From an uncultured Nitrososphaerales archaeon (GTDB taxonomy: Archaea > Thermoproteota > Nitrososphaeria > Nitrososphaerales > Nitrososphaeraceae): 64,000 bases of DNA. The notes under the pieces are model-generated. The model was not told where the DNA came from, made no database searches, and was given only the letters and a program-made list of their open reading frames with translations. The stretch is from the NCBI GenBank assembly GCA_963709405.1, contig CAVPXM010000053.1:1-64000 (forward strand). The letters are read 5' to 3'. Every line of letters starts with the position of its first letter. The stretch's first letter is position 1. Shown here piece by piece: positions 31,320 through 35,538 of the stretch. The position numbers were made by a program, and so were the translations under genes.

Positions 31320-31454
31320 GTGTATAAAAATTGGTAAATTCACTGTTGATCCTATCACTGGATTTGAATGGTAGTACATTTATGGATCAAAAGATTTACT
31401 AAATATCTGATCAAGCAAAGATTAAATAATGCTTTCCAATTGCTATTTTGGATA

Positions 31455-31859
31455 TTGGCTCAGTTCAAAGTTATTATTTCTGATGCTAAGGGTAGGAGTC
31501 AAGCTCAAGAGATTAAAGATGTAGCAGCTCAGCCATTTTTAGGATCAAAGATAGGAGATTCCATTGACTCTTCTACGGTAGGTATTACTGGTGGCAAGAT
31601 CAGAATCACTGGAGGAAGCGATAGGTCAGGTACACCGATGCGGCCCGATATACACGGCGGTGTCAAGAAATATGTGCTACTGTCAAAGGGAGTTGGTATG
31701 CGCGATATCAAAGATGGCAATAGAATTAGAAAGTTGGTAAGAGGAAATTTGATTACGGAGGAAATCTATCAGCTGAATTGTATGCTGATCGACTGTAACT
31801 TGCCTGACCTATCAGTAGATCAAGGAGATAAACTCGCAAAGGACGATATTAAGAATTAA
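31455..31859 (+). CDS. rps6e: 30S ribosomal protein S6e
   Basis: FKVIISD, KIRITGGSDRSGTPMRPDI, RKLVRGN; in-frame TTG start at 31455. Confidence 0.95.
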   Translation: MAQFKVIISDAKGRSQAQEIKDVAAQPFLGSKIGDSIDSSTVGITGGKIRITGGSDRSGTPMRPDIHGGVKKYVLLSKGVGMRDIKDGNRIRKLVRGNLITEEIYQLNCMLIDCNLPDLSVDQGDKLAKDDIKN

Positions 31860-32079: not shown

Positions 32080-33343
32080 TTGCACTGGAAGGATACACTG
32101 CCTGACTGGTATATCAAAGAATATGGATATCAACCAAATATTAACATAGGCACGTCCGGTCATGTTGACCATGGAAAGACTACTCTAGTAGAGGCTATAA
32201 CTGGGGTTTGGACAAGCGCACATAGCGAGGAATTAAGGAGAGGCATTACTATTAAGGTGGGCTATGCTGACGCAGCTTTTTATAAATGCCCACAGTGTCC
32301 CCCGCCTGATTGTTACTCTACTAATCCAATATGCGCGAATTGTGAAGGAAAAAGCGAGCTGTTGAGAGTCGTAAGTTTCGTAGACTCTCCAGGCCACGAA
32401 AGCCTAATGGCAAACATGTTGTCGGGATCTGCTCTTATGGATGGAGCAATCCTAGTCGTTGCTGCCGAACGATCGAGTTCCCCAACCTCAGACACGAGAG
32501 CACATGCTTGCTCTACAGGTCCTCGGAATTAAGCAGATAGTAATTGTTCAAAATAAAGTAGATTTGACTGACCCGGAAAATGCATTAGAAAATTATGAAG
32601 AGATAAGGGATTTTGTGAAGCATAGTGTAGCTGAGAGTGCTCCGATAATTCCGGTATCTGCACAGCACAAAATCAATATCGATGCCCTGATAGAGGCAAT
32701 AGAGGGAACAATAAAGACTCCTGTTCGAATGAAAAATGCAAATGCAATAATGCACGTCTTGCGCTCATTCGATGTGAACAAGCCTGGAATTAGAATAAAA
32801 CAGGTCAAAGGAGGAGTCATAGGAGGAGCTTTAATTCAAGGCGAATTTAATGTAGGCGACGAAGTTGAGATTCGACCTGGCTTCTTCGACGAAAAGAAAG
32901 GCAAATACGAGCCGATTAATTCTACTCTCGCGACATTGGGTACAGGAGCCGGCTTGGTAGAAAATGTGAAACCAGGTGGACTCATTGCTCTTGGTACTAA
33001 ATTGGATCCAACCTTTGTGAAGAGTGATTCCCTGATCGGCTCCGTTGTTGGGAGGCCGGGAGACTTACCTAAAGATATTGAAGATATATCGGTGGAAGTG
33101 CACCTTTTTGATACCGCGGTAGGTACTCAAGAATTGGTTAAGGTTGATCCCATCAGAGTGAAGGAACCATTGAGATTAAATGTAGGGACAGCAACCGCTC
33201 TGGGAACGGTTGCAGGTACCAGAGATGACAAAGTAGAGATAAGATTGAAGAAACCTGTCTGTATGATGCCTAAGAGCAGGGTAGCTATTAGCAGGAGGAT
33301 AACAGACAGGTGGAGATTAATAGGAGCTGGCATAGCTTCATAA
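32080..33343 (+). CDS. eif2g: Translation initiation factor aIF2 gamma subunit (one frameshift near 32466)
   Basis: [21 protein letters not shown], Zn knuckle, DSPGHE, PQTREH, QNKVD, RWRLIG. Confidence 0.96.
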
Positions 33344-33686
33344 GAAAACATATATTCTCACTCAATGATACAACACCTGACGTAAGATATGTTACGCAAG
33401 ATCAGACAGCATTTCAGGTTTTCAAACCCCTTAAAGTTCCAGGCTGGCTTCTCTCCTCTAGGTCATAGCCAAGATACGCTTACTTATGAATCTCTATTTT
33501 AGAAATTAAATATTTCAAACAAAACTGGTATGTATCGCTTTACGCGTGGAGTAGCATTTATCAGCCTTTCCAAATATTTTTTGCAACATCTCTGGTAACT
33601 CATAATAAATCAGTTTGTCTTCGGATAGCATCGGCTCAGTTTTATGGGAAGGTTTTTAATCTAGAATCAGTCCGTCATAAAGGATA

Positions 33687-34787
33687 ATGAAGGTTCTCGA
33701 TATAGCGAAAACAAAAGTCCTCAGTCTTGATCCTGAAGAGACGGTAGGCAAGGCGTTGAGTCTAATGTATGAAAACAAGATTCATCAAATTCCGATTATC
33801 GACACTGACTCCGTATACAGGGGTATGATATTCGCAAAACAATTTCTAACTGTAAATGCTCTACCACACTCTAAAGTCAAGAGTTTTATTAGTAATACTC
33901 CCTCACTTGATGAAAGTGACGACGTTGAAAAATGTGTCCAACTAATGGTCGTCACTGGAAATAGGGCCTTACCACTGCTTGAAAGTGGAAGACTTACAGG
34001 CCTACTCAGTGAGATTGATATTCTTACGATTTCAGATTTTGGACATGCTATCGTAGACGAAGTGATGTCTGGAGCAATTGTGATCGAAGAACAGACAGCT
34101 CTAGGCAATGCATTGTCAAAGATGCGTCGATATAATATATCACGTCTTCCGGTTATCACTCCAAATGGGATTCTTGTTGGTATTATTAATTCGCTAGACA
34201 TAGCTGAGGTCATTTCCACGCCAATAGAAAGGTCTACGAAGTCTAAGGGAATCGGTGGCTTGGTTGCTATCAGAGATCTTAAAGTGAAATCCATCATGAA
34301 ACGCCCGATTTCTGTTGAAAGGGGTACAAGAGTGAATGATGTCGTAGCCCATCTCAAAAATAGTGAAGAGATTGTTGTTGTTGGGGATAAGAGGCCTATT
34401 GGAATCATTACTCCAAAGGATATCTTGGAACTAATTCTTCCTAGGATGAACAAACCTACGGTCCATGTGGCCCATCTAGATGACGAAAATGCCCGATCAG
34501 AAATCGAGATTCAAATGCACAAATTTTTAGATAAAATTCGGGGAAAAATGGGAGATATTCACCTAGTAGTAGTTTACGCTGATAAACACAAGACTCGTAA
34601 GTATTCTATGCGTGCAAGACTAATCACAACTACAGGAGTAATCGATGCAAAATGTGTTGCATTCGATCCTTTAAGCGCATGTAAAGGAATGATAGCCAGA
34701 CTCGATAGGCGGATAAAATCTGAACATAGCCAAAAGGTCAGAAATAGGCAGCACGCTAAATCGGCGAGAGGTTATGAATTAGAATAG
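33687..34787 (+). CDS. 4xCBS-domain protein with C-terminal HPF/RaiA-like domain (candidate ribosome hibernation factor)
   Basis: Four CBS repeats (IHQIPII, RALPLL, ISRLPVI, PIGIITPKD), then about 110 aa with the beta-alpha-beta-beta-beta-alpha pattern of HPF ending in DPLSACKGMIARLDRRIK. Confidence 0.75.
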   Translation: MKVLDIAKTKVLSLDPEETVGKALSLMYENKIHQIPIIDTDSVYRGMIFAKQFLTVNALPHSKVKSFISNTPSLDESDDVEKCVQLMVVTGNRALPLLESGRLTGLLSEIDILTISDFGHAIVDEVMSGAIVIEEQTALGNALSKMRRYNISRLPVITPNGILVGIINSLDIAEVISTPIERSTKSKGIGGLVAIRDLKVKSIMKRPISVERGTRVNDVVAHLKNSEEIVVVGDKRPIGIITPKDILELILPRMNKPTVHVAHLDDENARSEIEIQMHKFLDKIRGKMGDIHLVVVYADKHKTRKYSMRARLITTTGVIDAKCVAFDPLSACKGMIARLDRRIKSEHSQKVRNRQHAKSARGYELE

Positions 34788-34918
34788 CGCAGATGAGGAG
34801 ATTCGAACTCCTGATCGCCTAGAGGCGAATCGGCTAGCTTTTAGCCCCGTAACTCAAGGCCGACGCATTATTATGTTCATGCTGCTCTGAGCACCGAAGA
34901 CCACTCTGCCACATCTGC
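34788..34918 (-). tRNA. tRNA-Ser(UGA) with two introns: D-loop (34871-34898) and 37/38 (34836-34852)
   Basis: After removing both introns: GCAGATGTGGCAGAGTGGTCTAATGCGTCGGCCTTGAGAGCCGATTCGCCTCTAGGCGATCAGGAGTTCGAATCTCCTCATCTGCG, with long variable arm and G73. Confidence 0.9.
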
Positions 34919-35379
34919 ATGATTCATAACGTCGGCTAACTGATTATTATATGTTAACAAATTATTGATCATTTGGTATATCTAGCAAATCAGTAGTCGG
35001 CATATAACAAAGAATAGCTTAATCAAAAAGTATACAAAATAGAAATAGAAGACTGATATTGAAAAATTAGATGCAGGCATTTGACAATCATGTATTCCAC
35101 ATAAGTGGTCGGTGATATATATAGGATTAAGTTCAATATAGGTAAATCAAAAACCCGCCGACAGTAGGAGAAAAAAAGTTTTTGCAATTAATAATTTCAA
35201 TAATATGCCTGATCTGATCTGATCTGGTTTAACATGATCTAGCATTAGATACTTGAAATGTTAGTTCTCTTTATGTGGAACGTATGTTGTTCAAAATAAT
35301 TCTGAACCTTAAAATCTATATACAAAAGAAGTGGAGAATAATACAAACAATTAATAATTGATCCTTTACCAATTATTTA

Positions 35380-35442
35380 TTACTTTTTTGTCTTTTTTTC
35401 TACCTTCTTAGCAGATTTAGCTGCTTTCTTCTTTGCTGCCAT
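35380..35442 (-). CDS. 20-aa Lys/Ala-rich microprotein MAAKKKAAKSAKKVEKKTKK (below the ORF-track cutoff)
   Basis: ATG at 35442, tandem TAA TAA stop, A-rich BRE plus CTTAAATA box about 28-35 nt upstream. Confidence 0.65.
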   Translation of the reverse strand: MAAKKKAAKSAKKVEKKTKK

Positions 35443-35538
35443 ATTCAAAGATATAAAATAAAGAATTCGTATTTAAGTTTTTTATAACACTAACAAATCG
35501 ACGCTTTTCTGAAAGTTTATAATTTGGTTATTCTCGAA

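Follow-up and report, generated by a model that had tools for sequence, protein, structure and literature searches.

The window analysed here is a stretch of 64,000 nucleotides (contig CAVPXM010000053.1, positions 1 to 64,000, forward strand) from the genome of an uncultured Nitrososphaerales archaeon. On its plus strand, positions 33687..34787 hold an open reading frame with an ATG start that encodes 366 amino acids, and its translation is identical to the one quoted in the original prediction. This frame, hereafter the type 1 gene, is preceded by a small zinc-ribbon ORF, rps6e, aIF2-gamma, and a spacer of 343 bases. Downstream, genes of the metallo-beta-lactamase-fold and PIN types lie on the opposite strand, and a nucleotidyltransferase gene lies farther away on the strand of the type 1 gene. 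The features of the locus are as follows.

31368-31859, Ribosomal_S6e (rps6e), upstream of the type 1 gene
32080-33343, aIF2-gamma (Pfam domains GTP_EFTU and eIF2_C), upstream of the type 1 gene
33643..33662, plus strand, A/T-rich block ~30 nt before the ATG, with TTTTTAA at 33653-33659, a possible promoter of the type 1 gene itself
33687..34787, plus strand, whole type 1 gene (366 aa and stop), encoding a CBS-tetrad-HPF fusion protein homologous to HibA/AHA
33690..34034, plus strand, CBS1 and CBS2, the first Bateman pair, residues ~2-116 (Pfam and model secondary structure; borders approximate and model-derived)
34047..34217, plus strand, CBS3, residues ~121-177 (Pfam CBS; G165 in 37/37 and D171 in 35/37 orthologues)
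34218..34274, plus strand, CBS3-CBS4 loop, residues 178-196, predicted to be disordered (pLDDT, conservation, HibA alignment)
34275..34439, plus strand, CBS4, residues ~197-251 (invariant G-I-[IV]-T-P-K-D motif)
34455..34721, plus strand, predicted C-terminal HPF-like domain (models, Foldseek, C-terminal profile against the PDB, invariant K-Y-S-x-R core)
34722..34784, plus strand, basic extension of the C-terminal helix and tail, residues 346-366 (model)

As judged by its conservation, the ORF is a real gene and not a chance frame. Among 4374 candidates, 441 proteins are homologous at an E value of ≤0.001, and the best 120 of these share 55 to 100% identity with the type 1 protein over 93 to 100% of the query and are 360 to 395 aa long. 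The frame is present in 80 of 80 genome loci that were fetched (55 to 80% identity), whose titles name Nitrososphaeraceae, Nitrososphaera, or Nitrosopolaris in nearly every case, and the starting methionine, M1, is invariant in an alignment of 37 sequences. Pfam finds CBS in four stretches of the protein (E = 2.4e-33, the strongest at residues 123-176) and no other family at E ≤ 10, and NCBIfam returns only CBS-containing families, all below threshold. The expectation that annotation pipelines would recognize only the CBS part holds for the five homologues with NCBI names, all of which are called CBS proteins, but not for JGI/IMG, where 55 of the 120 best homologues listed (counted by hand) are named [quoted passage not shown]

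The host genome (G000) is a Nitrososphaeraceae MAG of 4.83 Mb in 100 contigs and is 91% complete. It contains an archaeal amoA (E = 5e-118), and the host was therefore fairly described as an ammonia oxidiser on the basis of gene content. The gene was also correctly placed beside rps6e and aIF2-gamma, but this arrangement is kept in only 5 of the 80 loci, all from the same genus, and the other 75 have unrelated neighbours, most commonly PQQ-sugar-dehydrogenase-like (52 loci), HMG-CoA reductase (48), HisG (41), and HisD (31) genes, named by eye from translations. Gene context was therefore rejected as functional evidence, and no functional link to rps6e or aIF2-gamma is drawn. The A/T-rich block before the ATG is invariant in all six same-genus loci, while the DNA farther upstream diverges; it may represent the gene's own promoter, which would give a very short leader. 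Contigs from three RNA libraries of three separate studies cover the ORF with 95 to 99% likeness and are a weak hint of expression; they also cover intergenic DNA, including the spacer in one run, and, as they may derive from DNA, they attest presence and do not prove transcription. The parts of the ORF left uncovered in runs X16 and X17 carry no evidential weight. Rfam and tRNA scans of the region from 30.5 to 37 kb found no RNA gene near the ORF.

The original prediction of four CBS repeats followed by an HPF/RaiA-like domain is borne out by the four Pfam stretches and by structure comparison of the C-terminal part, which is predicted to adopt the HPF/RaiA fold. In the AlphaFold model its layout is E258-262, H267-283, E291-300, E306-314, E318-325, and H328-360, the last helix extending to residue 360 with a drop in pLDDT beyond residue 350. 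When the C-terminal 121 residues were modelled alone (pLDDT 80.3) and compared with known structures by Foldseek, as had been proposed for this region, all 34 matches listed within ranks 1 to 39 belonged to ribosome entries or were chains of HPF, YfiA, protein Y, RaiA, RafH, MPY, or plastid pY, with E values of 6.4e-6 to 1.3e-2 and target-normalised TM scores of 0.30 to 0.81. An HPF-type factor or hibernating ribosomes are named in 31 of the titles, the remaining three matches are ribosome entries, and the first unrelated fold appears at rank 40 (TM 0.29).

Sequence comparison places the domain in the same family at the margin of detection. A profile built from 24 sequences of the C-terminal domain alone (A3) matched four of 177,635 PDB sequences at E ≤ 10: the best was residues 287-370 of HibA (9sr9_H; E = 4.3e-4), the second was E. 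coli HPF (4v8h_AX; E = 0.033), aligned over nearly its full length (25-112 versus 10-99), and the third and fourth were irrelevant. The core K-Y-S-x-R is invariant. In contrast, Pfam Ribosomal_S30AE (PF02482; gathering cutoff, 23.7 bits) does not match the type 1 protein at E ≤ 10, and a scan of the whole genome with this model passed over the locus and matched only a paralogue, at ~19 bits. The C-terminal domain as a single sequence retrieved no HPF and no HibA from the PDB (one irrelevant match) and, from 1.84 billion representatives, 18 clusters, none of them recognisably bacterial HPF. The expected HPF/S30AE relationship is thus upheld by structure and profile matches but not by the Pfam model, and the assignment rests on a confidently predicted fold and marginal but specific profile matches rather than on a curated family match.

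Over its full length, the protein is homologous to archaeal ribosome hibernation factors. The two best matches in the 177,635 PDB sequences are both ribosome-associated chains: 9l96_a, a haloarchaeal “CBS domain-containing protein” of 406 aa (E = 2e-19), and 9sr9_H, which belongs to the entry for ribosome-bound HibA (PAB0961) of Pyrococcus abyssi (Madru et al., Nat Commun 2026, PMC13324472). Pairwise comparison with 9sr9_H by phmmer gives an E value of 1.1e-17 (residues 10-352 versus 13-376), and a more diverse full-length profile (A2) aligns with it in a single collinear stretch (2-350 versus 5-374; E = 3e-40). The features of HibA/AHA that can be sought in a sequence, i.e., the CBS tetrad, the loop between CBS3 and CBS4, the HPF domain, and collinearity with HibA, are all present. 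We therefore consider it very probable that the product of the type 1 gene is a ribosome hibernation factor of the HibA/AHA type, in an ammonia oxidiser of the Nitrososphaeraceae.

The remark in the original prediction that CBS-HPF fusions had recently been reported was accurate (Madru et al. 2026, PMC13324472; Souza et al. 2026, PMC13728122), and the type 1 protein is an uncharacterised addition to a family first described in 2025-2026, whose mechanism is already published. For HibA, Madru et al. describe a C-terminal HPF/RaiA-like domain within the mRNA-tRNA channel of the 30S subunit of the P. abyssi 70S ribosome, a CBS module that occupies three positions on the 50S subunit, and a “PTC loop” (residues 190-207) that surrounds a peptidyl-transferase-centre adenine that is universally conserved; translation is inhibited by HibA, which also preserves 70S ribosomes and is reported from 47% of 4026 archaeal genomes (PMC13324472). 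AHA of Haloferax volcanii (HVO_2384, PDB 12DM) has the same architecture, and its knock-out has a stationary-phase phenotype (Souza et al., EMBO J 2026, PMC13728122). Across the two papers, the evidence in print for the family comprises cryo-EM on 70S ribosomes, translation inhibition, knock-out phenotypes, and AMP binding. For the AHA survey of 6968 genomes, one of the HPF-domain queries came from Nitrososphaera viennensis (A0A977ICN8; PMC13728122), which places the lineage of the window within a published survey. A literature search on ribosome hibernation in ammonia-oxidising archaea or Nitrososphaera returned papers on the HibA/AHA family and unrelated ones alone, and no paper was found with ribosome, nucleotide, or phenotype data on any member of the Nitrososphaerales.

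The type 1 protein (366 aa) is collinear with HibA (392 aa) from end to end, and HibA is the best PDB match of its C-terminal profile, but sequence identity is low and the C-terminal domain escapes detection when searched as a single sequence. The hosts also differ, HibA coming from a hyperthermophile and the type 1 protein from a mesophilic soil ammonia oxidiser. The CBS-tetrad-HPF architecture is shared with AHA, although the AHA entry 12DM is not among the PDB matches of the type 1 protein and the haloarchaeal 9l96_a is a different entry. Bacterial HPF, RaiA (YfiA), and plastid pY have the same predicted fold as the C-terminal domain, with TM scores of up to 0.81 (Vibrio cholerae HPF); the type 1 protein differs in falling below the Pfam PF02482 model and in its fusion to a CBS tetrad, and it lacks the dimerisation domain of long HPF. 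Conversely, its CBS tetrad superposes on a SriA/B-complex chain, AMPK-gamma, and Dri, but Dri, SriA-D, and AMPK-gamma are without the HPF domain; in addition, Dri has two CBS tetrads and AMPK-gamma is part of a kinase heterotrimer.

A full-length AlphaFold model built on 37 orthologues (pLDDT 83.5, pTM 0.78) contains four CBS units. Its Foldseek matches, including the SriA/B-complex chain 9znf_4 (E = 5.9e-20), MJ1225, AMPK-gamma chains, and Dri, are CBS tetrads alone and are silent on the HPF part; 9SR9 and 9L96 are absent from the structure library used. The loop between CBS3 and CBS4, though predicted to be disordered (pLDDT < 50 at residues 180-193), ranks among the best-conserved parts of the protein: P179, R182, and K185 occur in 37/37 orthologues, S186 and G190 in 35/37, and E181 in 34/37. 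Residues 178-196 align with residues ~190-207 of HibA, and by this alignment the loop corresponds to the “PTC loop” of HibA and to “loop 3” of AHA.

The canonical motif of CBS domains has the form G-h-h-[ST]-x-x-D, also given as G-h-h-[ST/N]-x-x-D. In CBS4 it is invariant (G239, T242, and D245, all in 37/37 orthologues), in CBS3 it is nearly so, and in CBS2 its aspartate, D111, is found in 37/37; the motif of CBS1 is degenerate. Conservation in CBS3 and CBS4 fits adenylate binding there, as in HibA and AHA, without demonstrating it, and the pair probably constitutes a binding site for AMP, ADP, or ATP.

The genome scan with PF02482 revealed a second CBS-tetrad-HPF paralogue, type 2, of 424 aa (G000:C22:22735-24006; L007:493-1767), which contains CBS and a subthreshold S30AE match (18.4 bits). 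It is 23% identical to the type 1 protein and more distant from HibA (E = 2e-8 versus 1.1e-17). The PDB sequence that its C-terminal profile ranks first is Staphylococcus aureus HPF (E = 0.008), with other HPFs next, and this profile aligns with the type 1 C-terminal profile in hhalign with a probability of 84% and an E value of 7e-6.

The distribution of both types was surveyed in 251 genomes from 20 families of the order, with cutoffs of E ≤ 1e-40 for type 1 and E ≤ 1e-15 for type 2. The figures are given as counts without a statistical test, related genomes not being independent, and they include an unpublished genome (G122), the type 2 match of which is one of the 11 among 13 genomes in family f7. 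Type 1 was found in 37 genomes, namely, that of the window, 31 of the 56 genomes from family f1, and 5 of the 9 from family f4; the other 18 families (185 genomes) had no match, including 0/57 in each of f10 and f13. Type 2 was found in 143 of the 251 genomes and in 14 of the 20 sampled families. Within the 56 sampled genomes of f1, type 1 occurs in 31 and type 2 in 26, so that 55 carry at least one type, 2 carry both (G013 and G174), and 1 carries neither (G218). Similarly, 4 of 10 genomes of genus g2 have a type 1 relative (36 to 40% identity) and the other 6 have type 2, with no overlap. The genome of the window is among the few that carry both.

HPF-like domains also occur as stand-alone ORFs. 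All five genomes of the Nitrosopumilaceae genus g39 have one (L100-L104; G258, G223, G182, G136, and G206), with an open frame of 118 to 134 aa that matches the type 2 HPF profile at E values of 6e-24 to 5.5e-27. For one of these ORFs, the identical database entry is a “hypothetical protein” (113 aa) from Nitrosopumilus cobalaminigenes. Another stand-alone HPF-like ORF, of 119 aa (L099, G027), was found in a different family. These ORFs sit uneasily with a sentence in Madru et al. in which Nitrosopumilaceae are listed among the lineages without identifiable factors (PMC13324472).

The mechanism proposed for the type 1 protein is carried over from the complexes solved for P. abyssi and Hfx. volcanii, and it is from these that we infer ribosome binding. 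The C-terminal HPF-like domain would occupy the 30S decoding region and mRNA-tRNA channel, with the basic tail (residues 346-366) directed towards the mRNA path; the CBS tetrad would cover the tRNA sites from the 50S side, and the CBS3-CBS4 loop would reach the peptidyl-transferase centre. So placed, one protein would staple the empty 70S ribosome, block translation, and shield rRNA in nongrowing cells. The original prediction went further and envisaged adenylate-gated dormancy during ammonia starvation; in a strict form of this idea, the CBS tetrad would sense the AMP/ATP ratio and directly switch ribosome binding on in starved cells and off upon refeeding. Canonical motifs kept in CBS2, CBS3, and CBS4 across the 37 orthologues are consistent with such a switch, as are the reported preference of the HibA CBS module (HibA-CM) for AMP (Kd, 12 uM) over ADP and, last, ATP (PMC13324472), the two AMP molecules at CBS3/CBS4 of ribosome-bound AHA, and an AHA protein level that is constant across growth phases, which suggests post-translational control (PMC13728122). 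Nevertheless, 5 mM AMP or ATP had little influence on the conformations that HibA takes on the ribosome or on how these are distributed, the authors describing no clear effect (PMC13324472). We consider the strict form of the switch doubtful, and ammonia starvation as the trigger is pure conjecture.

A second CBS-HPF paralogue in the same genome means that type 1 need not be the main factor. Type 2 could perform the hibernation function, with type 1 a diverged or redundant copy whose role is modified or partly different, for instance in a different stress or ribosome state or with a partner that sequesters it; the low identity of the two copies, the wider occurrence of type 2 in the order, and the invisibility of the type 1 HPF domain to Pfam would all accord with this. 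However, it is type 1 that is nearer to the solved HibA, its loop and HPF core are strongly conserved, and in 29 of the family's 56 sampled genomes it is the sole CBS-HPF gene found, so that there the function, if performed by any copy, must fall to type 1. We regard redundancy of type 1 as quite unlikely. Less likely still is a CBS regulator with a nonribosomal target, comparable to a transcription regulator or a partner of replication proteins, in which the C-terminal domain would be a look-alike. Stand-alone CBS tetrads do include the transcription factor HhpR, and HibA was pulled down with replication and recombination proteins (PMC13324472). The NCBIfam HhpR model also matches the CBS part of the type 1 protein, weakly (33 bits against a cutoff of 520 bits). 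Set against these points, the 34 C-terminal Foldseek matches listed down to rank 39 are without exception HPF-family or ribosome entries, and collinearity with a ribosome-bound protein extends from end to end, which together make a nonribosomal role very improbable. A hibernation factor of the HibA/AHA type remains our preferred reading of the type 1 gene.

The survey suggests a broader picture, which we put forward tentatively as possible: ammonia-oxidising archaea may have two lineages of HPF-based hibernation factors, separated since ancient times, of which one takes the place of the other. Type 1 would be the Pfam-invisible lineage, confined among the sampled genomes to Nitrososphaeraceae and one sister family, and type 2 would be widespread and, in some lineages, reduced to a stand-alone HPF-like protein of ~110 aa, as in the genus represented by the Nitrosopumilus cobalaminigenes entry. 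If this is true, the near-complementary pattern of the two types would suggest that they are functionally equivalent and have displaced one another repeatedly, and Nitrosopumilaceae would not be without a hibernation factor, contrary to the sentence in print (PMC13324472).

With the family and its mechanism published, the gain lies in annotation and in a lineage-specific picture, not in a new principle. The novelty is modest and consists of a lineage-specific HPF variant that Pfam does not see, near-complementary paralogues in Nitrososphaeraceae, and stand-alone ORFs in Nitrosopumilus-type genomes. Ammonia-oxidising archaea endure long periods of substrate starvation, and the type 1 gene is an obvious candidate for parking and protecting their ribosomes; in cultures of Nitrososphaera or Nitrosocosmicus, it could be targeted concretely by proteomics, cryo-EM, and assays of nucleotide binding.

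Several observations concern the type 2 gene and its surroundings. Its best DNA match lies in another genus (76% identity), which hints at lateral acquisition, and the gene was possibly acquired in this way. Mis-binning of its contig was considered and provisionally set aside: the best DNA matches of a multicopy element beside it are in same-genus genomes (83 to 85%), and proteins at least 90% identical to type 2 sit on contigs of up to 1.09 Mb. The type 2 copy is provisionally treated as genuine in this genome. The element, a stretch of ~780 bases upstream of the gene (L089:24-804, G000:C22), has many copies in genomes of the same genus (70 to 85% identity) and encodes two adjacent short frames that, by eye, resemble a broken radical-SAM-type gene. 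A third, type-2-like copy at G000:C16:18039-19095 is interrupted by TGA and TAG stops and is probably a pseudogene. Exact matching showed that two of the type 2 proteins, one from “Ca. Nitrosocosmicus franklandus” and one from “Ca. Nitrosotenuis cloacae,” bear the NCBI name “CBS domain-containing protein.” The type 2 protein at L092 (G007) is identical to the “Ca. Nitrosocosmicus franklandus” entry, which UniRef names “Inosine 5'-monophosphate dehydrogenase,” likely a misannotation driven by the CBS pair.

Two further observations concern the window itself. Downstream of the type 1 gene, the RNA-library contigs extend to 34819-34907, and the ~740 bases at 34788-35523 have a G+C content of 0.34, with no ORF of ≥60 aa on either strand and no Rfam or tRNA match. 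Upstream, a single additional base at ~32465, relative to three same-genus loci, breaks aIF2-gamma into two frames that overlap. This base is absent from the contigs of all four runs (three RNA libraries and one DNA run), and an error of assembly or consensus is the most likely cause of the split, rather than a real frameshift in an essential gene.
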